From: Escherichia phage T4
Sequence record: NC_000866.4
Reading direction: 5' to 3' (one strand)
Length of the DNA: 64,000 nt
The position numbers were made by a program, and so were the translations under genes. Positions 9,677-41,951 of this stretch are shown here, piece by piece; the stretch's first letter is position 1; every line of letters begins with the position of its first letter. A model generated the notes under the pieces. It saw only the letters and a list, made by a program, of their open reading frames with translations, made no database searches and was not told where the DNA came from.

Positions 9677-9706
9677 ATAATACCACGGTTTGAACTTGTT
9701 GTAAAC
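9677..9706 (-). promoter_or_regulatory. T4-type early promoter
   Basis: Minus strand GTTTAC, 18 bp spacer, TATTAT; A/T-rich upstream tract. Confidence 0.6.
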
Positions 9707-9782
9707 AACTTTGTGAAAAATATTTTAGGGAATGATAAGAAAGGAACGATAGCTTAGAATGGTAATATACAGAATGTGAGAA

Positions 9783-9800
9783 AGAAAGGCCCAGAGGGCC
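9783..9800 (-). terminator. hairpin after nrdH (possible terminator)
   Basis: GC-rich inverted repeat ggccc..gggcc directly after nrdH stop, followed by T/C-rich run on minus strand. Confidence 0.45.
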
Positions 9801-9804
9801 CGTC

Positions 9805-12809: not shown

Positions 12810-13845
12810 TTCATCAATGTGTTCAGTAGAGTTCGCTACTTCTCTACCCGTTTATATGAAACAATGTAATTTGGATAATTGTCATCTAAACACAAATCTT
12901 TAATACGACTTGGGTGGAGTTTTAAATCTTTAGCAGCATCCACAAATGATTTATAGATATTGTCATTTATTTTAACATATTCTGGGACGGGATGAATTGT
13001 TATTTTTATATCTATAACATTTGGATGATTACTAACCTGTTCTTCAGAGCATTTAAGAAATTTTGCAGCTGATTTAAAACTTCTAAATTTATTTCCGGAT
13101 TTTAAAGCTATAGAAACAGTCTTTTTAGCCGTTCTACTACCAATATTATTTTTAACATGAGCTTCACTTCTACTATTATTTTTATAATGCTCAATCAATT
13201 TCTCTCGTATCTTATCTTTATGTTTTAAAGATAAGATTTTACCTTTATGGGCATTACTAAGTTTTTGCTTATGTTCTTCTGAATCCGGATATTTGTTAAA
13301 TTTATATCCACCTATAGATTTATTAAGAATAAATTCGTTATTAAAATATTTCCTAATAAGCATTTCTTCATGTTTAAGGGCCGATTCATAAGAATCAAAA
13401 ACTTGAAGAATTATCCACTTAGCTTTATAATCTTTAAGCTTTTCTTTAACAAGCTTAGATGACGAATTGTATTCTTTCCAATTTGTATCTTTACCATATA
13501 TAGTTTTGAATTTTTTAAAACCTATATAAAAAGACTTATCAGGAAATCTTACCATATAGGTAAATGCTACAGAATTGGCAATTTTTAAGCTTTTTCTTAA
13601 TTTCCATTTCATCGTTTCACCTCGTATTCATATTTATACGAGGATAAACAGCTGCATGTCACCATGCAGTTCAGACTATATCTTCAACTCTTAGAGTTGT
13701 CTGCCGTTTCGGGTCGCTTGACCCTACTCCCTTACATTCATCAGGGATAGTCGTTGGGCATTTACAGCTACTGCTGATTTAGCAACGGATTGTCTCAGTG
13801 AGAGTTTCCCGTTTTAGGCAGATTTTACATGAGCTTGACTTACGT
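12810..13845 (-). mobile_element. group I self-splicing intron in nrdD carrying I-TevII (boundaries approximate)
   Basis: Non-coding structured GC-rich core 13613-13845 recalled as the T4 nrdD (sunY) intron; embedded GIY-YIG ORF; NrdD reading frame interrupted; exon totals 181+424 match the ~605 aa NrdD. Confidence 0.8.
12836..13612 (-). CDS. I-TevII: intron-encoded GIY-YIG homing endonuclease I-TevII
   Basis: 258 aa ORF MKWKLRKSLKIANSVAFTYMVRFPDKSFYIGFKKFKTIYG... inside the nrdD intron. Confidence 0.9.
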   Translation of the reverse strand: MKWKLRKSLKIANSVAFTYMVRFPDKSFYIGFKKFKTIYGKDTNWKEYNSSSKLVKEKLKDYKAKWIILQVFDSYESALKHEEMLIRKYFNNEFILNKSIGGYKFNKYPDSEEHKQKLSNAHKGKILSLKHKDKIREKLIEHYKNNSRSEAHVKNNIGSRTAKKTVSIALKSGNKFRSFKSAAKFLKCSEEQVSNHPNVIDIKITIHPVPEYVKINDNIYKSFVDAAKDLKLHPSRIKDLCLDDNYPNYIVSYKRVEK

Positions 13846-14385
13846 TAACTCATAAGCTTGGAATGCATCGTATACGTCTTTTTCTGTTTTAGATTGAGCA
13901 TAATTCAACGCATCAGCGATTTGCCATTTTTCTGCATCCTCAATATGTTTTGCATAGGTGCGTTTAACATAAGGAGAAAGTACTTTATCTACATTCGCAA
14001 AAGTCGTTCCGCCGTATTGGTGAGAAGCAACTTGCGCAGTAATTTGTGCCATAATTGCAGTAGCAACTCCAATTGATTTAGGAGTTTCAATCTGCGCATT
14101 ACCAAGCTTAAATCCGTTTTCAAGCATTCCTTTTAAATCTACTAAACAGCAATTAGTAAATGGAAGAGCAGGGGAATAATCAATATCATGCACGTGAATA
14201 ATTCCGCTTTCATGCGCTTTCATAATAAAAGACGGGACCATATTTTTGGCAATGTGTTTAGACACAATACCAGCCATAAGGTCCCGTTGAGTTGGAAAAA
14301 CACGAGAATCTTTATTAGCATTCTCGTTTAAAAGGTCTTTATTAGTTTTATGAATTAATCCTTCAATTTCTTTTTCAATTGTCAT
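13846..14385 (-). CDS. nrdD: anaerobic ribonucleotide reductase NrdD, exon 1 (N-terminal part)
   Basis: ORF MTIEKEIEGLIHKTNKDLLN... of ~180 aa; ORF-track stop at 13840-13842 lies inside the intron; exact splice site not determined. Confidence 0.85.
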
Positions 14386-18943: not shown

Positions 18944-18973
18944 ATTATACCACATCCTTGTGGCAAAGTAAAC
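18944..18973 (-). promoter_or_regulatory. T4-type early promoter
   Basis: Minus strand GTTTAC-18-TATAAT upstream of nrdC.4-like ORF. Confidence 0.65.
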
Positions 18974-21885: not shown

Positions 21886-21913
21886 TTTGTGTTCCTCCGT
21901 AGTTGATAGTTGT

Positions 21914-21943
21914 ATAGTACCACAGAGGAACGGTCTTGTAAAC
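21914..21943 (-). promoter_or_regulatory. T4-type early promoter with conserved downstream block
   Basis: Minus strand GTTTAC-18-TACTAT followed by acaactatcaactac and GGAGG. Confidence 0.65.
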
Positions 21944-23406: not shown

Positions 23407-23432
23407 ATAAAAAAGGGAGCCCGAAGGCTCCC
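23407..23432 (-). terminator. rho-independent terminator after nrdC.11-like gene
   Basis: Minus-strand gggagccttcgggctccc hairpin followed by TTTTTT. Confidence 0.7.
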
Positions 23433-23434
23433 TA

Positions 23435-24445: not shown

Positions 24446-25208
24446 TATTAGACCTTTCATAATCTTCATTAAATTGTACAATCAATCGATGATAATTAGA
24501 TTTTGGATATCCTAATTTACTTATATAAGTTCCGAATGACCCACGTTTAGGTCTATTTAATTTAATCCATAACTTATAAAGTAAGTCATAGTCTTGCCAA
24601 TGTTTACCAGTTCTTTGTCTAATTTTAGATGAATTTGATTGTTTCTTTTTAGCTTCAAAATTATTCAAAGATTTTTTGACTGCAGCAGAGTGTTTTTCTT
24701 TAACTCCCGGTCGTTTAAAAGCAGCTTTCACCCCTTTAGATATTTTTTCTTTAACTTCCGGTTTGTTTTGTGCTTCTAACTGGGATTCTGAAATTTTAGC
24801 CCTTATTTCAGGAAGACTTAATGTTATCGAACGTTTTTCTCTGTATTCATTAGACTTCCACATTTCTTTCATTGTATTAGAATGTATTTTTGAAAATTTT
24901 TCTCTAACTAACTGATATCCTCTTGAAGTTAATTTGAGATTTCTTCCTAAAGAATCTTCTCCAAAATTATAAAATGACCACCATGCATAAATTAATCCAG
25001 GCGAATTGTAATGAATTTTAGCTAAAAGCCAATGGGCTATAAAATGCTCTCTAGCTGTTAATAAAACTAGATTATCAGAATCATCATTACCACCAATACA
25101 AGATGGAATAATATGATGCTTTTCCGTATAAAAATTTAATTTAGATTTATCTAATTTTCTGAGTTTTCCTTTCTTAATTAAATTATTATATACTTTAGTA
25201 TAATTCAT
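24429..25208 (-). CDS. mobD: HNH homing endonuclease (MobD-like)
   Basis: 259 aa; HNH motif HHIIPSCIGGNDDSDNLVLLTAREHFIAH. Confidence 0.8.
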   Translation of the reverse strand: MNYTKVYNNLIKKGKLRKLDKSKLNFYTEKHHIIPSCIGGNDDSDNLVLLTAREHFIAHWLLAKIHYNSPGLIYAWWSFYNFGEDSLGRNLKLTSRGYQLVREKFSKIHSNTMKEMWKSNEYREKRSITLSLPEIRAKISESQLEAQNKPEVKEKISKGVKAAFKRPGVKEKHSAAVKKSLNNFEAKKKQSNSSKIRQRTGKHWQDYDLLYKLWIKLNRPKRGSFGTYISKLGYPKSNYHRLIVQFNEDYERSNNENCS

Positions 25209-25282
25209 TGGTTCTTCGTCTCATTTAATTTTGCTTTGCATTTATAACACATGTCTGTTCCACTTGAAATAAACATATTTCC

Positions 25283-25828
25283 TCACTTTGAAATCATAGT
25301 TGGAATAACAGAATCAAGATAAGTCTTTAGTGCAATAGCTTCCTCTTTCTTTAATGTAATGATATGTGATCGAAAATCATCAATTTGACGAATAGATACT
25401 ACATCTCCCTCTTCATAGCATTTTGAAACATTTAAAATAGTTTCATCATTCTGATTACAGGAGTTAGTAATAATAGCATTACATTTTTTAAACCATTTTA
25501 AATTATGTTTTCTTTTAGTAGAATCATAAAAATATTTAATGTTAGTTATAAAATTATCCCAATTATTAATTGATAAGCACATTGACTCGCTTTTAATATT
25601 AAATCCTGGGCATGAAGAATAAAAATGAATTTTATGCTCATCATTAATGCTTACAATTTTATCAGTGTAAGCATATTCAATTTGGGTTAAACGAACAATT
25701 TCGCTAGGCGTAAAATATAACATGTCATCTTCTTGCGTCAAACGATACATGTTATTTACTTTTTCTATAGCCAATTCACCAAAAAGTGGACTAACTTCTA
25801 ATACTAGTCGTTTCGCCTCGCTCATCAT
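25283..25828 (-). CDS. hypothetical protein (mobD.1-like)
   Basis: 181 aa ORF downstream of early promoter 25961-25990. Confidence 0.55.
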   Translation of the reverse strand: MMSEAKRLVLEVSPLFGELAIEKVNNMYRLTQEDDMLYFTPSEIVRLTQIEYAYTDKIVSINDEHKIHFYSSCPGFNIKSESMCLSINNWDNFITNIKYFYDSTKRKHNLKWFKKCNAIITNSCNQNDETILNVSKCYEEGDVVSIRQIDDFRSHIITLKKEEAIALKTYLDSVIPTMISK

Positions 25829-25960
25829 TACATACTCCTCTGAATCATATTAATAATGTTATTCACCAGATTATAAGTAAACATTGGGTAATTATATTGA
25901 ATCATCACATATATAACAAACAAAACTTTCATTCTCTTCTCCTTGGCAGTTGACAAGATT

Positions 25961-25990
25961 ACTATACCATAATCTTGTCAACTTGTAAAC
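25961..25990 (-). promoter_or_regulatory. T4-type early promoter inside 12-bp inverted repeat
   Basis: Minus strand GTTTAC-18-TATAGT; dyad ttgacaagatta/taatcttgtcaa at 25950-25981. Confidence 0.55.
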
Positions 25991-26154
25991 CATTAAATGA
26001 CGTTTTCGATAAAATTTTGAAGCTTTGTATGAGCATCAACCATGATTTTCATTTCTTCCTTGGAAAAGCTGTGCCTCTTTCCCGAGAAGAACATTCATAG
26101 TCAGAAACTGCATTAGCATATTCTTCAATTAGCTTCATTAAAAACATCTGTTTT

Positions 26155-26349
26155 TCAGTTTTCATTATTCCACCTAATCATTTCAAGATATTGAACTAAC
26201 TTAGCTTTGGATTTATCCAAATCCCTTTTAGCTGCTTCTATACCGTCGTATGAATATCCTTCACAATGCTCAACTGCTAATTGATATGAATCTATTTCAA
26301 TATCATGCGCTAATTTAATGATTTTTTCAAACTGTTCGCGTGTTAGCAT
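26155..26349 (-). CDS. hypothetical small protein
   Basis: 64 aa ORF. Confidence 0.45.
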   Translation of the reverse strand: MLTREQFEKIIKLAHDIEIDSYQLAVEHCEGYSYDGIEAAKRDLDKSKAKLVQYLEMIRWNNEN

Positions 26350-26351
26350 AC

Positions 26352-26570
26352 TTAAACTCTCGTATTATGATCGATAATTTCATCAAGAAACATATCTAAC
26401 GCTTCTACAGCATTATTAACTTTAGCTTCAAATTCTTCAATACCTGATAAGGCAAAGTTAATGCGTTCCTCATCTGCTTTACGAATTAAAGCTACCAATT
26501 CCTTAATTTTATCCGCTTGTTCGATACTAATCATTATTCCACCACATATGAAAGAGAGAATATTGCACAC
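26352..26570 (-). CDS. hypothetical small protein
   Basis: 72 aa ORF. Confidence 0.45.
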
Positions 26571-26722
26571 GCCATGTGAGTTGCAACTTCATCACACATA
26601 TTATAACGTTTCTTAAGAAGTTCTACAAGTTCTTCACTAGTAACTTCATCCATGTCGACGAAAAAATCACCATTAATGATGACGTAGATATTTCCTTCTT
26701 GATTGAGTGCTTCAATTTTCAT
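26534..26722 (-). CDS. hypothetical small protein
   Basis: Start trimmed to [11 protein letters not shown] downstream of early promoter 26751-26780. Confidence 0.45.
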
Positions 26723-26750
26723 GATGTTCTCCTCTTTATCCGATGGTTGT

Positions 26751-26780
26751 ATAGTACCACAGCTCAAACGGAAAGTAAAC
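26751..26780 (-). promoter_or_regulatory. T4-type early promoter
   Basis: Minus strand GTTTAC-18-TACTAT immediately after terminator 26791-26814. Confidence 0.65.
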
Positions 26781-26790
26781 CGGTAAAATG

Positions 26791-26814
26791 AAAAAAAGTC
26801 TCCCGAAGGAGACT
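26791..26814 (-). terminator. rho-independent terminator after rI.-1-like gene
   Basis: Minus-strand agtctccttcgggagact hairpin followed by TTTTTTT. Confidence 0.7.
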
Positions 26815-26818
26815 AATG

Positions 26819-27205
26819 TTATTCGAGGGAAAGAAGATACTTACTCTGGTAAAACATTCCAGTAATATCATCTATCGTGCTTTGGATGGCTGGAGGCATT
26901 TCTTTATAAATGCTGTTAGATTGGTCTAGTATGCGATCAATCATTTTAATTGTGTCGGTAGGAAGTTTACTGGCATCTGGAATTGAAGGCGTGTATTTTC
27001 GACCAGAATACCCCAAATATTGCTCACCAAATTTATCAATCAAATCTGGCAACTCGGAAAAAATAAAATCGTATGCTTTGTGTCTAGCATAACTTTTAGT
27101 TTCAAAATGTGCAGAATGAAAATAAGCTTGTGCAGCCATTAATAAACCTAAGTATTCATCTGCCTTTGAAGGTTTTCCACTTTGTGAAAAGTCGCTGAAT
27201 TTCAT
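26819..27205 (-). CDS. hypothetical protein (rI.-1-like)
   Basis: 128 aa ORF immediately downstream of rI. Confidence 0.55.
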   Translation of the reverse strand: MKFSDFSQSGKPSKADEYLGLLMAAQAYFHSAHFETKSYARHKAYDFIFSELPDLIDKFGEQYLGYSGRKYTPSIPDASKLPTDTIKMIDRILDQSNSIYKEMPPAIQSTIDDITGMFYQSKYLLSLE

Positions 27206-30740: not shown

Positions 30741-30767
30741 GTTATTCTCCTCTTAACTGATAGAAAA

Positions 30768-30797
30768 ATTATACCACAGTCAAGAGGAAAAGTAAAC
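30768..30797 (-). promoter_or_regulatory. T4-type early promoter of regB
   Basis: Minus strand GTTTAC-18-TATAAT then GAGGAG and regB ATG. Confidence 0.7.
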
Positions 30798-33355: not shown

Positions 33356-33385
33356 TTTAGTGTTCTCCTGTAGTTGATAGGTCTA

Positions 33386-33414
33386 TAGTATCATACCTAC
33401 AGGAGATGTAAACT
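33386..33414 (-). promoter_or_regulatory. T4-type early promoter of denV
   Basis: Minus strand GTTTAC-17-TACTAT. Confidence 0.65.
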
Positions 33415-33415
33415 G

Positions 33416-33718
33416 TTATTTATCTTTAATTGCTTTAGCTGCTTCGATAGCCGCTTGCTGAAGGTCATCCATAGACATGCCGAACTTAGAAGCAAAGTTA
33501 TCAATTTTCTTTTCGACGGCATTCAAAGGCTTGGCCTGTTTACCTTCATTAGCGCCAGGAAGAGCGAGAATACGCTCTCTGTCAATATAAAGGCTTACAA
33601 GTTTCTTACGGTCTTTATCGGGCAAATCATGAAATGAATGGGCCTTTTTATTTACAGCGGCTTCTAATTTACCTGCGCCCACTCGCGCTTCGGCAATAAA
33701 TTCTTGATATGTTTTCAT
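33416..33718 (-). CDS. ipII: internal protein II
   Basis: 100 aa; N-terminus MKTYQEFIAEA shared with ipIII (capsid targeting sequence). Confidence 0.85.
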   Translation of the reverse strand: MKTYQEFIAEARVGAGKLEAAVNKKAHSFHDLPDKDRKKLVSLYIDRERILALPGANEGKQAKPLNAVEKKIDNFASKFGMSMDDLQQAAIEAAKAIKDK

Positions 33719-33769
33719 ATGTTTCCTTTAAATGTAAATATTTTTATTATTCTATCCTAGAATTGTGAT

Positions 33770-33799
33770 AATATATTCACAATTCTAGGAGTTGTAAAC
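33770..33799 (-). promoter_or_regulatory. T4-type early promoter of ipII
   Basis: Minus strand GTTTAC-18-TATATT; -10 sits between 12-bp inverted repeats 33757-33788. Confidence 0.65.
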
Positions 33800-33833
33800 T
33801 GCTTTTATTTAAGCGTCCCAAGTATAAGCTTTA

Positions 33834-34415
33834 TTAAGAATTACCACGGGCTGCATTAGCAACGGCGTAAGCGTACTGAATATTAGCGTCTTTAAACTTA
33901 CCTTTAGAGGTATCTATTTCTGCCTTAAAGCCGCCTTTAGTCATAACATCGGCAAATTCTTTACGGAAAGCCATTGCATCAAGACCTTTCCATGATGATT
34001 TATGCTTGGCAAATTCAAGACCTGCGAAGTTGACAGCTTTAGCCAATTTATTATCAATGACCCATTTACCGGCTTTAGGCACAAACTTCGGGCCTTTCTG
34101 TTTAGAGAACAGTTTTAAATTCCAGCGGCGAAGGTCTGCATCAGCTTTAACAAATTCTGAGTCTAAGTTACTAGCAACAACATCTTCAATATGAGCAAAT
34201 TTAAGTCCGTCAACTTCAATATTTAAATCGGTACGCCAGCGAAGTCCTTCCCAAGCGAAGGCTTTAAAGTCGGAAGCCTTTGTAGCTAAGTACCGTTCAA
34301 TAGGAGCTGTTTTAGGGTCAAAGCCGTTTCCTGATCGGTAGGTCCACTCATCTTTGTTAATGCCTTTGGCCTTTACTACAGAAGCTTCGGCAATAAATTC
34401 TTGATATGTTTTCAT
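33834..34415 (-). CDS. ipIII: internal protein III
   Basis: 193 aa; N-terminus MKTYQEFIAEA. Confidence 0.85.
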   Translation of the reverse strand: MKTYQEFIAEASVVKAKGINKDEWTYRSGNGFDPKTAPIERYLATKASDFKAFAWEGLRWRTDLNIEVDGLKFAHIEDVVASNLDSEFVKADADLRRWNLKLFSKQKGPKFVPKAGKWVIDNKLAKAVNFAGLEFAKHKSSWKGLDAMAFRKEFADVMTKGGFKAEIDTSKGKFKDANIQYAYAVANAARGNS

Positions 34416-34468
34416 ATGTTTCCTTTAAATATTTTAATTAGTAATTGTCTATTCAAGTAATTGTGAAT

Positions 34469-34498
34469 ATACTATCACAATTCCAAGAGAAAGTAAAC
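34469..34498 (-). promoter_or_regulatory. T4-type early promoter of ipIII
   Basis: Minus strand GTTTAC-18-TAGTAT; -10 sits between 8-bp inverted repeats 34459-34482. Confidence 0.65.
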
Positions 34499-34502
34499 AG
34501 CT

Positions 34503-35490
<988 letters not shown>

Positions 35491-37905: not shown

Positions 37906-37937
37906 AGTATTTCCTTAGGTTGGTATAATTAGATAAT

Positions 37938-37967
37938 ATAATATCACGTTTCTAATAGATTGTAAAC
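37938..37967 (-). promoter_or_regulatory. T4-type early promoter
   Basis: Minus strand GTTTAC-18-TATTAT upstream of e.6-like ORF. Confidence 0.6.
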
Positions 37968-38303: not shown

Positions 38304-38329
38304 AATGTTTTCCTCATTTGTATAGGCTC

Positions 38330-38359
38330 ATAATATCTCAATCATCAGCCTATGTAAAC
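38330..38359 (-). promoter_or_regulatory. T4-type early promoter
   Basis: Minus strand GTTTAC-18-TATTAT upstream of e.7-like ORF. Confidence 0.6.
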
Positions 38360-38666: not shown

Positions 38667-38696
38667 ATAGTACCATGGAAGAACAAGGATGTAAAC
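38667..38696 (-). promoter_or_regulatory. T4-type early promoter with conserved downstream block
   Basis: Minus strand GTTTAC-18-TACTAT followed by acaactatcaactac. Confidence 0.65.
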
Positions 38697-38825: not shown

Positions 38826-38857
38826 TACCAAAAAGCCCCAACCTTTCGGTCGGGGCT
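38826..38857 (-). terminator. rho-independent terminator closing the tRNA / small-RNA cluster
   Basis: Minus-strand agccccgaccgaaaggttggggct hairpin followed by TTTTT. Confidence 0.7.
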
Positions 38858-39257: not shown

Positions 39258-39918
39258 ATTTCATTTTTCGACCTTTAAACCATCCTTCTGGAATTGGGTC
39301 AGTTTTCTTAATACGTTTAGAAACTTTTTCATCTAATGAATGAATCCACATCATACCGAATTGGGAATTCTTTTCACCTTTCTGGTGATTATTTTTGGCG
39401 TGAGATTCTTTCATTTTATTAATAGTTTCAGGAGTATGATGCTTATTTAGAAATCTGCTATTATTTAAAAATTTTTCCCTGTATTCAGGAGTTGACCACA
39501 AACGTTTAAATACATTTGAACCAATTTTACGATATTTTTCTTGAAGTAAAATATCATTTTCAAAACGTGACTTAAACGATTTAGCTCCTTTTAAGCTAGC
39601 ATCTTTCTTCTGGTTTAGCATTCCAGGAATATTTACATGATCCCATCCACCTTCACCGCCAAGTTTTAAATTATACACATCTGGTCTATTTAAAAACTCT
39701 TCTGTGACAATATTTTTCTCGGCTTCAAGCATAGATTCTTTATCGTCAAAATACTCTAATATTTCTTTAGAAAAATTTTCTATACCATATTTATCTTGGG
39801 CTCTTTTTAATAATTTACCAGAACCCATATATCCATCATCTAAATTTTCGGTAGAATGCACACCAATATAAATTTTATTATTAATTTTATTTGTTATTTT
39901 ATAAGTGTAATAGAACAT
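39253..39918 (-). CDS. segB: GIY-YIG homing endonuclease SegB
   Basis: 221 aa; YYTYKITNKINNKIYIGVHS...GYMGSG; embedded in the tRNA cluster as in T4. Confidence 0.85.
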   Translation of the reverse strand: MFYYTYKITNKINNKIYIGVHSTENLDDGYMGSGKLLKRAQDKYGIENFSKEILEYFDDKESMLEAEKNIVTEEFLNRPDVYNLKLGGEGGWDHVNIPGMLNQKKDASLKGAKSFKSRFENDILLQEKYRKIGSNVFKRLWSTPEYREKFLNNSRFLNKHHTPETINKMKESHAKNNHQKGEKNSQFGMMWIHSLDEKVSKRIKKTDPIPEGWFKGRKMKF

Positions 39919-39959
39919 AAATATCTCCTATTTCTAAGAGTATTTATGTTCTCAAAATA

Positions 39960-41514: not shown

Positions 41515-41542
41515 TTTATTCTCCTCAGTAGTTGATAGGGTA

Positions 41543-41572
41543 ATAGTATCACAGCTAAAACCCTATGTAAAC
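41543..41572 (-). promoter_or_regulatory. T4-type early promoter
   Basis: Minus strand GTTTAC-18-TACTAT upstream of tRNA.4-like ORF. Confidence 0.65.
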
Positions 41573-41590
41573 AACTTTGTGAAATATTTA

Positions 41591-41878: not shown

Positions 41879-41909
41879 TTTTATTTTCCTAATTAATTTT
41901 GATGAGGTA

Positions 41910-41939
41910 ATAGTATCACTACCTCATCAGTATGTAAAC
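41910..41939 (-). promoter_or_regulatory. T4-type early promoter of ipI
   Basis: Minus strand GTTTAC-18-TACTAT; -10 sits between 9-bp inverted repeats gatgaggta/tacctcatc. Confidence 0.65.
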
Positions 41940-41951
41940 AACTTTGTGAAA

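Follow-up and report, generated by a model that had tools for sequence, protein, structure and literature searches.

We confirmed that several early promoters of phage T4 have genuine inverted repeats about their −10 boxes, and that these repeats are non-random and maintained by compensatory mutations. Judging from their sequence, these dyads probably, on balance, form the stem-loop part of early promoter plus stem-loop cassettes, a T-even analogue of the PeSL (promoter-early stem-loop) cassettes of T4-type phages (Arbiol et al. 2010, PMC2839356; Comeau et al. 2014, PMC4122927), with an RNA hairpin that would form in transcripts initiated upstream and would act as a boundary in one of two classes of dyad (class A). 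The feature itself was already known, from repeats annotated in GenBank record X04567 in 1986 and from the PeSL papers of 2010 and 2014, and is here consolidated and quantified.

Inverted repeats at T4 early promoters

The window, the whole 64 kb stretch of T4 DNA that was analysed, carries the ip genes on the minus strand, and when read on that strand each of the four loops of the dyads at the ipII, ipIII, ipI and mobD.2 promoters holds the −10 hexamer of a GTTTAC-N17-TAnnnT early promoter. The ipII dyad (33755..33790, minus strand) consists of the 14-bp perfect arms TCCTAGAATTGTGA and TCACAATTCTAGGA on either side of the loop aTATATTa, which corresponds to the −10 box; its inner arms are ctagaattgtga (33757-33768) and tcacaattctag (33777-33788), separated by N8, and the promoter lies at 33770..33799 (minus strand; GTTTAC, N17, TATATT). 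At ipIII (34459..34482, minus strand), the 8-bp arms AATTGTGA and TCACAATT enclose the loop TAGTATat (aattgtga at 34459-34466, N8, tcacaatt at 34475-34482) of the promoter at 34469..34498 (minus strand; GTTTAC, N17, TAGTAT). The ipI dyad (41900..41929, minus strand) has the 10-bp perfect arms TGATGAGGTA and TACCTCATCA around the loop gtgaTACTAT, with gatgaggta (41901-41909), N10 and tacctcatc (41920-41928) as inner arms, and its promoter is located at 41910..41939 (minus strand; GTTTAC, N17, TACTAT). Finally, the mobD.2 dyad (25948..25983, minus strand) has the 14-bp arms AGTTGACAAGATTA and TAATCTTGTCAACT around the loop tggTATAG, with the inner arms ttgacaagatta (25950-25961) and taatcttgtcaa (25970-25981) separated by N8; it belongs to the promoter at 25961..25990 (minus strand; GTTTAC, N17, TATAGT), and its 3′ end is 4 nt before the Shine-Dalgarno sequence.

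The preliminary description of this DNA had listed these four dyads as flanking or overlapping the −10 element, and all four are present where it placed them, with the −10 box bracketed at each site. Its arm lengths need revision, as the dyads exist but those at ipII and mobD.2 are longer than was claimed (14 bp each), and the 9-bp ipI arms are present but the end given for them, 41929, is one base beyond such arms and fits the true 10-bp arms (41900-41929). The −10 and −35 signals of these promoters are annotated in GenBank records X04567 and U76612, with those of mobD.2 in U76612. An AT-rich upstream sequence followed by GTTTAC, N17, (TG)n and TAnnAT was found at 4/4 sites, and each of the four dyads lies between genes in a plastic region, ahead of a small gene with its Shine-Dalgarno sequence and start codon.

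A scan of the whole 64 kb for perfect inverted repeats (arms of at least 10 bp, loops of 3–20 nt) returned five distinct loci, of which three were centred on early-promoter −10 boxes, and no other short-loop perfect inverted repeat in the 64 kb is as long as the 14-bp dyads of ipII and mobD.2. Folding of the RNA gave z-scores of −7.1 (ipII), −6.2 (mobD.2), −3.5 (ipI) and −2.7 (ipIII) against dinucleotide shuffles, with predicted energies of −12 to −23 kcal/mol for the −10-enclosing hairpins (−20.4 kcal/mol for ipII). The spacer was complementary to the sequence downstream of the −10 box, with a perfect run of at least 7 bp, at 10/15 intergenic T4 early promoters, compared with 7% of random genomic positions and 3% when halves were swapped between promoters (permutation p<5e-5); 5/15 early promoters were without any dyad. 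The same pattern was found in 71 non-redundant non-T4 promoters of related phages (cognate −13.3 versus swap −9.7 kcal/mol, p<5e-5).

Read-through transcripts and two classes of dyad

Transcription is predicted to start approximately 7 nt after the −10 box, inside the 3′ arm, with the 5′ arm in the promoter spacer. In the proposed layout, the −10 hexamer would fall in the loop or at the beginning of the 3′ arm, and the 3′ arm would supply the first transcribed bases. A transcript from the own promoter would contain only the 3′ arm and be unstructured, whereas a transcript from an upstream promoter would contain both arms and fold into a stable hairpin; since both arms are found only in read-through RNA, the hairpin would mark an RNA by its start point. 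The earlier statement that no RNA hairpin forms at these sites is therefore correct for the own transcript, which lacks the 5′ arm, but does not extend to read-through RNA from closely spaced upstream promoters, in which we infer that the hairpin forms in vivo.

The dyads fall into two classes, with arms that hug the −10 box in class A (ipII, ipIII, ipI and mobD.2) and a 3′ arm that is the Shine-Dalgarno sequence in class B (denV and two others). Further class A dyads were detected on the minus strand at 38322..38353 (ATAGGCT, N18, AGCCTAT around TATTAT; promoter P38335), where an A-T pair is replaced by G-C in orthologues (ATGGGCTCAT/ATGAGCCCAT), which is a compensatory change, and at 41535..41566 (ATAGGGT, N18, ACCCTAT around TACTAT), where the same gene in L009 has an 11-bp dyad, TAGATAGGGTA/TACCCTATCTA. 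A weak class A dyad is located at 37928..37956 (minus strand; ATTAGA, N17, TCTAAT around TATTAT), and the orthologous promoter in LHE83 and L014 has the unrelated arms GAGGACA/TGTCCTC with an 8-nt loop. The predicted energy for opening the ribosome binding site (RBS) changed by only +0.3 to +1.9 kcal/mol with the class A hairpins of ipII, ipIII, ipI and mobD.2, and on this basis masking of the RBS was rejected for these four dyads.

In the class B hairpin of denV (33364..33406, minus strand), annotated in X04567 as 'imp. inverted repeat C/C'', the spacer sequence TCTCCTGTAG pairs with CTACAGGAGA, the Shine-Dalgarno sequence, and opening the RBS is predicted to cost 7.5 kcal/mol more in read-through transcripts than in those from the own promoter. 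At the promoter at 30773 (hairpin 30745..30791, minus strand), TTTTCCTCTTGACTG pairs with the Shine-Dalgarno sequence CAGTTAAGAGGAGAA via two G:U pairs among others (sense MFE −24.3, antisense −14.0; change in RBS opening cost in read-through RNA +12.9 kcal/mol), and the LHE83 orthologue has TCTCCTCA/TGAGGAGA. Similarly, at the promoter at 21919 (hairpin 21891..21931, minus strand), GTTCCTCTGT pairs with the Shine-Dalgarno sequence ACGGAGGAAC (sense MFE −27.6, antisense −15.8; change in RBS opening cost +13.5 kcal/mol), with CTCCAGTAG/CTACTGGAG in LHE83. Folding of class B hairpins was far better in the sense than in the antisense orientation, and the orthologues differ in sequence and retain the pairing of spacer and Shine-Dalgarno sequence. 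With the Shine-Dalgarno sequence in the 3′ arm, translation from read-through RNA is predicted to be poor for denV and for the genes behind the promoters at 30773 and 21919; this RNA should also be resistant to RegB, because structure inhibits RegB.

Translational masking by a hairpin that contains the promoter has been described for the T4 genes e, soc, 49 and I-TevI (PMC3014915). There, too, the promoter lies inside the hairpin, the 5′ arm is missing from the own transcript and folding is restricted to RNA initiated upstream, and the class B hairpins sequester the Shine-Dalgarno sequence likewise. The two systems differ in that late promoters delay expression in the known cases, whereas the promoters described here are early, and in that class A dyads leave the RBS uncovered.

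Pairing and arm sequence at orthologous promoters

Conservation of the arms at orthologous promoters had been suggested as a check on the dyads, and gave a split result: the symmetry has been selected via compensatory changes, but the arm sequence changes and the ipII cassette is absent in three genera. For mobD.2, 98% of the cells in an alignment of 11 phages were paired, compared with 22–64% in slid controls, and the helix showed compensatory double changes at four pairs, spanning orthologues of 72% identity, as well as two pairs which are G:U in 8/11 sequences. At the promoter after gene 57B, which is syntenic with the ipI promoter, five genera (Tequatrovirus, Mosigvirus, Dhakavirus and Jiaodavirus among them) show a hairpin that extends across the −10 box, with differing arms (GATGAGGTA, ATGGGGT, AGGATGATGG, AGGTCTATAG and GGGTTGTAGTA) in shifted register; most imperfections in these hairpins are sense-strand G:U pairs, and a single consensus structure for the family was ruled out by the register shifts between genera. 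The ipIII dyad is present as the variant TCATAATT in phi25-307, where pairing is kept via G:U, and as degraded variants in Dhakavirus. The complete ipII promoter-plus-dyad cassette of ~75 bp is missing from the ipIII-ipII junction of C6, phi25-307 and LHE83, which represent three other genera. This argues for conservation of structure rather than sequence at orthologous promoters, and the combination of arms that differ between promoters with pairing that is kept in orthologues points away from a sequence-specific operator and towards a nucleic-acid hairpin.

No Rfam family covers the dyad sites, with tRNAs and a group I intron as the only matches, and a scan of IMG/VR with a 17-nt AT-rich pattern was mostly unspecific and gave only 4 useful loci. 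Within individual families (mobD.2, the post-57B promoter and two class B hairpins), G:U pairs show a leaning towards the sense strand.

It had been suggested that the dyads could be operators for a dimeric regulator or cruciform-prone DNA, and we consider such a role at the DNA level, which might be linked to early shut-off or alter promoter activity, very unlikely. In its favour, the symmetry is perfect with the −10 box at its centre, the arms fold as single-stranded DNA at −5.8 to −13 kcal/mol, and covariation alone would fit a hairpin of either DNA or RNA. When interior wobbles were counted systematically, there were 8 G:U versus 7 A:C, which is no significant bias and does not separate RNA from DNA pairing statistically, and there was no overall asymmetry between sense and antisense folding energy over 89 promoters. 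Reviews describe early-promoter shut-off as mechanistically unexplained (PMC2988021, PMC3014915), yet they have early promoters shut off as a class, and 5/15 have no dyad.

An operator fails on the variability of the sites, as there is no common half-site among the arms CTAGAATTGTGA, GATGAGGTA, TTGACAAGATTA, ATAGGCT and ATAGGGT, which are unrelated; only the paralogous ipII and ipIII arms share AATTGTGA/TCACAATT. Loops range from 8 to 18 nt and the dyads are not in a constant register with the −10 box, orthologues swap arm sequence by compensatory replacement with the pairing left intact, and the ipII cassette is dispensed with in three genera. Nothing favours a cruciform or DNA hairpin either. 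In related promoters, the partner of this spacer region is the Shine-Dalgarno sequence, an RNA element, and the spacers between the arms are 8–10 nt, a length which disfavours cruciform extrusion; T4 DNA also carries glucosyl-hydroxymethylcytosine. The shared ipII/ipIII arms presumably resemble lac-operator half-sites and the TGTGA/TCACA half-sites of CRP, for which the consensus is TGTGA-N6-TCACA. A CRP site was rejected, as the half-sites at ipII and ipIII are 8 nt apart (TGTGA-N8-TCACA), no other dyad contains the motif, and phi25-307 has TCATA, which breaks the motif and keeps a G:U pair; we judged the resemblance to be coincidental or derived from the TGn element of the promoter.

Termination, boundaries and mobile cassettes

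The ipII ('inverted repeat B/B''), ipIII ('inverted repeat A/A'') and denV repeats were annotated in X04567 as putative stem-loop terminators which overlap the −10 box of the next gene. The dyads would then be canonical terminators of the upstream gene, with RNA polymerase released at the hairpin, and in line with this they form stable hairpins directly after that gene, dyad-bearing T4 promoters have no canonical terminators upstream, and a single phi1 PeSL stem-loop by itself behaved like a strong terminator in a reporter assay, reducing expression as strongly as rrnB T1 (PMC2839356, PMC4122927). However, the stems are AT-rich and lack a U-tract, with 0–3 T in the 8 nt after each stem versus at least 5 T in the corresponding 8 nt of the true terminators in the window, which have GC stems, UUCG or GAAA loops and T-runs, and a terminator scan called four true terminators and none of the dyads. 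Canonical terminator identity was rejected for lack of U-tracts, which also makes efficient intrinsic termination unlikely, and we give the terminator explanation as a whole only a small chance.

Canonical terminators were present within 185 nt upstream of 4/5 T4 promoters without a dyad versus 0/10 with a dyad, an association found post hoc (Fisher estimate ~0.004). In a wider set of 86 promoters, the negative association was seen at the strongest threshold only (0/26 versus 10/60, p = 0.03), and it was absent among the non-T4 promoters. This hints that the dyads may substitute for upstream terminators, a pattern which is striking in T4 and replicates only weakly in the wider set.

For class A, with its unmasked RBS, we infer that the hairpin may be a boundary element for the upstream unit that differs from a canonical U-tract terminator, either attenuating or pausing read-through or stopping 3′ exonucleolytic decay after processing. 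In E. coli operons, REP-type intercistronic stabiliser hairpins are barriers to 3′ decay, and the T4 hairpins resemble these in the lack of a U-tract, in their position between cistrons and in that they could shield upstream mRNA from 3′ exonucleases; they differ in having no sequence relation to REP and in being embedded in a promoter. No 3′-end or Term-seq map of T4 was found in the literature.

If the dyads do act as RNA hairpins, T4 would insulate its densely packed early genes through promoters that are each enclosed in a hairpin, and the handling of RNA according to its start point would be a compact regulatory logic, with a bearing on the sharp stop of early expression. A more speculative and rather doubtful extension is a genome-wide 'transcript-origin filter' in T-even phages, in which early genes are translated, stabilised or RegB-targeted efficiently from own-promoter RNA only, with read-through silenced or bounded. 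Expression of these genes would then collapse once early promoters stop firing, despite continuing transcription, and this would partly account for the sudden fall in early protein synthesis, which still lacks an explanation. It is less likely still that the dyads are DNA-level targets of a hypothetical structure-specific shut-off factor.

The closest known systems are the PeSL cassettes, in which overlap of the stem-loop with the −10 box is common and defines a subclass (PMC2839356, PMC4122927), and Arbiol et al. called the elements of the T-even IP locus PeSL analogues with AT-rich stems, not homologues (PMC2839356). In both, the intergenic cassette opens with an AT-rich region, continues with a strong early promoter and a stem-loop and ends with the Shine-Dalgarno sequence and start codon, and both have −10-overlapping stem-loops in hyperplastic regions beside small ORFs, with indels and chimeras. 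Differences are found in the stems, which are AT-rich and diverse in sequence in T4 and G/C-rich polyG/polyC in PeSLs of the RB49/phi1 type, in the promoter, which is GTTTAC, TGn, TAnnAT in T4 and near-perfect sigma-70 (TTGACA/TATAAT) in PeSLs, and in terminator activity, which was reported for one phi1 PeSL and is putative for the T4 stems. Furthermore, the 2014 paper draws the PST/T4 stem-loops just upstream of the promoter, whereas the dyads described here enclose the −10 box. The four dyads thus share with PeSLs an early sigma-70-type promoter, a promoter stem-loop, the intergenic position and the coincidence with indels and exchange, and lack the polyG/polyC stem and TTGACA/TATAAT promoter expected of RB49/phi1-type homologues, their −35 box being GTTTAC. 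The elements of the IP locus were reportedly also the subject of work by Repoila et al. in 1994.

The proposed cassettes would separate small early genes from one another where T4-type genomes are plastic. A rival view is that the dyads are a functionless by-product, either quasi-palindromes perfected by template switching in replication or passengers of mobile promoter cassettes spreading by recombination. T4 is a classical case of templated quasi-palindrome correction, and the two flawless 14-mers suggest a recent origin or correction; in addition, the ipII cassette behaves as an indel, the dyad is lost in some orthologues, chimeric and tandem-duplicated cassettes exist and there is no G:U bias. 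We nevertheless think a by-product improbable, as the enrichment is specific to promoters rather than genome-wide, five genera have independently acquired pairing by unrelated arms at one syntenic promoter, compensatory changes extend across the 72%-identical mobD.2 orthologues, and the class B 3′ arm lies systematically on the Shine-Dalgarno sequence. Under the favoured interpretation, as stem-loop parts of early promoter cassettes, the dyads would also provide patches of homology for swapping accessory genes, such as those of the injected internal proteins, and for the shuffling of hyperplastic regions; conserved cassettes that serve as recombination points would explain the indels and chimeric promoters. 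Chimeric arm combinations were found in L015, where dyads are degraded or absent, and L031 has a tandem duplication of the cassette.

Inverted repeats at early promoters of T4

The database sequences X04567 (the T4 58.3-65.5 kb early region) and U76612 were 100% identical to window positions 33400-34700 and 25000-27000, respectively. The minus strand is the coding strand for e, ipIII, ipII, denV, ipI and mobD.2, and the promoters are therefore to be read as the reverse complement. On this strand, all four inverted repeats (dyads) of the preliminary description were found in the window sequence where it had placed them, at ipII (33755-33790), mobD.2 (25948-25983), ipI (41900-41929, 10-bp arms) and ipIII (34459-34482, 8-bp arms), although those at ipII and mobD.2 extend further than described earlier, with 14-bp perfect arms each. 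Each dyad encloses the -10 hexamer of a promoter of the typical T4 early type, GTTTAC, N17, TAnnnT, often with a TGn element, and the -10 and -35 signals at these sites are annotated in GenBank, which bears out the proposed bracketing of the -10 element. A perfect inverted repeat with arms of ≥10 bp and a 3-20-nt loop occurs at five distinct loci in the whole window, three of which are promoter dyads, including the two longest. Folded as RNA, the dyads gave -20.4 kcal/mol for ipII (z-score -7.1), -12.3 kcal/mol for ipIII (z-score -2.7), -17.4 kcal/mol for ipI (z-score -3.5) and -22.8 kcal/mol for mobD.2 (z-score -6.2).

Entry X04567 (1986) annotates 'inverted repeat A/A'' (ipIII), 'B/B'' (ipII) and 'C/C'' (denV) as putative stem-loops that potentially terminate the gene before them, the -10 box of the next gene lying between the arms. 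Arbiol et al. (PMC2839356) recognised the IP-locus elements of T-even phages that Repoila et al. 1994 had seen as analogues of promoter-early stem-loop (PeSL) cassettes, with weaker, AT-rich stems compared with those of PeSLs, and Comeau et al. 2014 (PMC4122927) extended PeSLs to the PST/T4 pair. The observation is thus already known, and what is new here is its quantification, the covariation evidence, the division into two classes and the rejection of an operator reading.

Complementarity between the spacer (-38 to -13) and the downstream region (-6 to +36) was scored for 15 intergenic minus-strand early promoters of T4 that have a Shine-Dalgarno sequence and start codon downstream. In 10/15, 7 or more consecutive bp were perfectly complementary, versus 7% for random positions in the genome and 3% after the upstream and downstream halves had been swapped between promoters (permutation test, 0/20,000), and the swap control indicates that complementarity is specific to each promoter rather than a product of the promoter consensus. 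For 71 non-redundant (<85% identity) promoters of other T4-like phages, from LHE83 and the IMG/VR loci, cognate halves gave -13.3 kcal/mol versus -9.7 kcal/mol for swapped halves (permutation, 0/20,000).

In class A (ipII, mobD.2, ipI, ipIII, and three promoters whose -10 boxes lie at 38335, 41548 and 37943) the -10 box is closely flanked by the arms and the loop is 8-18 nt long, while class B (denV and the 30773 and 21919 promoters) has a loop of 23-27 nt, and the Shine-Dalgarno sequence is itself the 3' arm. Opening the ribosome binding site in class B is predicted to cost 7.5 to 13.5 kcal/mol more in read-through than in promoter-initiated transcripts; for the first four class A dyads this increase is only 0.3 to 1.9 kcal/mol. 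In two class B hairpins, G:U pairs make the sense strand fold much more stably than the antisense strand (-27.6 vs -15.8 and -24.3 vs -14.0).

Pairing in related phages

At orthologous promoters, where the preliminary description looked to conserved arms, pairing is often kept while the arm sequences change, and some dyads are degraded or absent. The mobD.2 helix has standard pairs in 98% of cells of an 11-phage alignment versus 22-64% in slid controls, with compensatory double changes at four pairs, all in the 72%-identical PTE-Eco05; in 8/11 sequences, two substitutions of A by G in the 5' arm produce sense-strand G:U pairs. At the ipI position, the first promoter after gene 57B, a hairpin spans the -10 box in eight phages (T4, PD112, FriedrichMiescher, TB004, RB69, SHSML-52-1, EcoM_005 and KpV477) from four named genera, five genera being sampled in all; these hairpins have unrelated arm sequences and shifting register, and their imperfections are mostly G:U pairs. 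Orthologues of the 38335 promoter replace A-T by G-C in the dyad, the arms are completely different in the orthologue of the 37943 promoter, and the LHE83 class B orthologues have other sequences with pairing to the Shine-Dalgarno sequence retained. This covariation shows selection on pairing, and does not tell apart which molecule pairs.

In Dhakavirus the 3' arm of the ipIII-type promoter is degraded, in phi25-307 pairing of the ipIII-type copy is maintained via G:U, and other ipIII homologues have an unrelated promoter with no clear dyad. In its 5' half, the T4 ipII promoter matches the ipIII promoter of Dhakavirus. The ipIII-ipII junction of C6, phi25-307 and LHE83 (compared using loci L060, L061 and L003) is without the ~75-bp ipII promoter-plus-dyad cassette, with ipII ~40 bp after ipIII and no promoter between; the cassette (window 33790-33840) is either an insertion in T4 or was lost in these phages. 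IMG/VR loci L038-L043, from another T4-like lineage, have IP-gene promoters with a different -35 region and the dyad GATGGGATAA-N11-TTATCCCATC around TATAAT, with an A·C mismatch in one copy, and the putative promoter/dyad architecture which they show is the same in this further lineage.

Operator, terminator and hairpin readings

The suggestion that the dyads are operator sites for a dimeric regulator was rejected, as the promoters share no common arm sequence, spacing and register vary, and orthologues swap sequence yet keep pairing. The TGTGA-N8-TCACA and lac-like appearance is confined to the paralogous ipII and ipIII promoters and is disrupted in phi25-307. The ipII/ipIII arms AATTGTGA/TCACAATT (33760-33785, 34459-34482) equal lac-operator half-sites, and TGTGA-N8-TCACA resembles CRP half-sites at non-canonical spacing, a likeness that the TGn element of the promoter probably produces by chance.

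A canonical intrinsic terminator was likewise rejected, since no dyad has a U-tract and none was called in the terminator scan. True terminators were called by the scan at 23414-23433, 26797-26814 and 38834-38857, and by a separate script at 9787-9801 (all minus strand), and these four have GC stems, T-runs and tetraloops that are mostly UUCG or GAAA. They lie 40-185 nt upstream of 4/5 dyad-less T4 promoters versus 0/10 with a dyad, an exclusion noticed post hoc which in the wider promoter set replicates only at the strongest threshold, and which suggests that dyads and true terminators are alternative means of handling incoming transcripts.

We lean slightly towards an RNA hairpin acting on read-through transcripts, as the class B 3' arm sits on an RNA signal, sense-strand G:U intermediates occur in several families, and the T4 precedent of promoters within hairpins (e, soc, 49, I-TevI) acts at the RNA level; however, a systematic wobble count was balanced (8 vs 7) and no global strand asymmetry was seen. 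Such a hairpin would arise only in RNA initiated upstream, and would cover the Shine-Dalgarno sequence in class B, while in class A it may delimit the upstream unit, either attenuating read-through into the next gene or acting as a barrier to decay; its exact role is proposed more tentatively than the hairpin. Cruciform-prone DNA, also suggested in the preliminary description, is disfavoured by the 8-10-nt spacers, although the arms do fold as single-stranded DNA (-5.8 to -13 kcal/mol). Since early-promoter shut-off is still unexplained according to reviews (PMC2988021, PMC3014915), a role of the dyads at the DNA level, for instance in this shut-off, keeps a small probability, and the finding some residual interest.

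Cassette families and other inverted repeats

The repeated cassettes may double as recombination joints. Chimeric arm combinations and one tandem duplication were present in the IMG/VR loci: on T4-like contigs (L015 3480-3900, L031 ~100-200), chimeric IP promoters combine the 5' arm of one family with the 3' arm of another, as in L015, so that the dyad is broken, and TACTATTACCTCATCAA is tandemly duplicated in L031. Both are consistent with recombination inside cassettes. An upstream block, TTCACAAAGTTG, is conserved before GTTTACA of several early promoters, among them ipI, 41548 and 9682 (41939-41950, 41572-41583, 9706-9717 and similar sites), with variants at 38672 and 23360, and a downstream block TACTATacaactatcaactac recurs among early promoters, which places the promoters in repeated cassette families ~70 bp long. 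The spacer of the 23360 promoter contains a self-palindrome, ATAAAGCTTTAT, and that of the early promoter whose -10 box is at 18949 wholly contains a small hairpin, CCACA-agga-TGTGG (18950-18967, minus strand), which overlaps the TGn element and is a different PeSL positional subclass.

Immediately after the tRNA cluster, a 12-bp perfect inverted repeat, AGAACATAAATA-N17-TATTTATGTTCT (39912-39952, minus strand), has an AGGAGA Shine-Dalgarno sequence in its loop and the ATG of an ORF in its 3' arm. The ORF, starting MFYYTYKITNKIN, resembles segB, a GIY-YIG homing endonuclease, and the repeat appears to be the segB start-site-masking hairpin mentioned in PMC3014915. A further 12-bp perfect inverted repeat, atcttatcttta-N5-taaagataagat (13209-13237), is located in an apparent coding stretch, as judged by eye, ~400 bp from a group I intron at 13652-13883 (Rfam RF00028, 105 bits).
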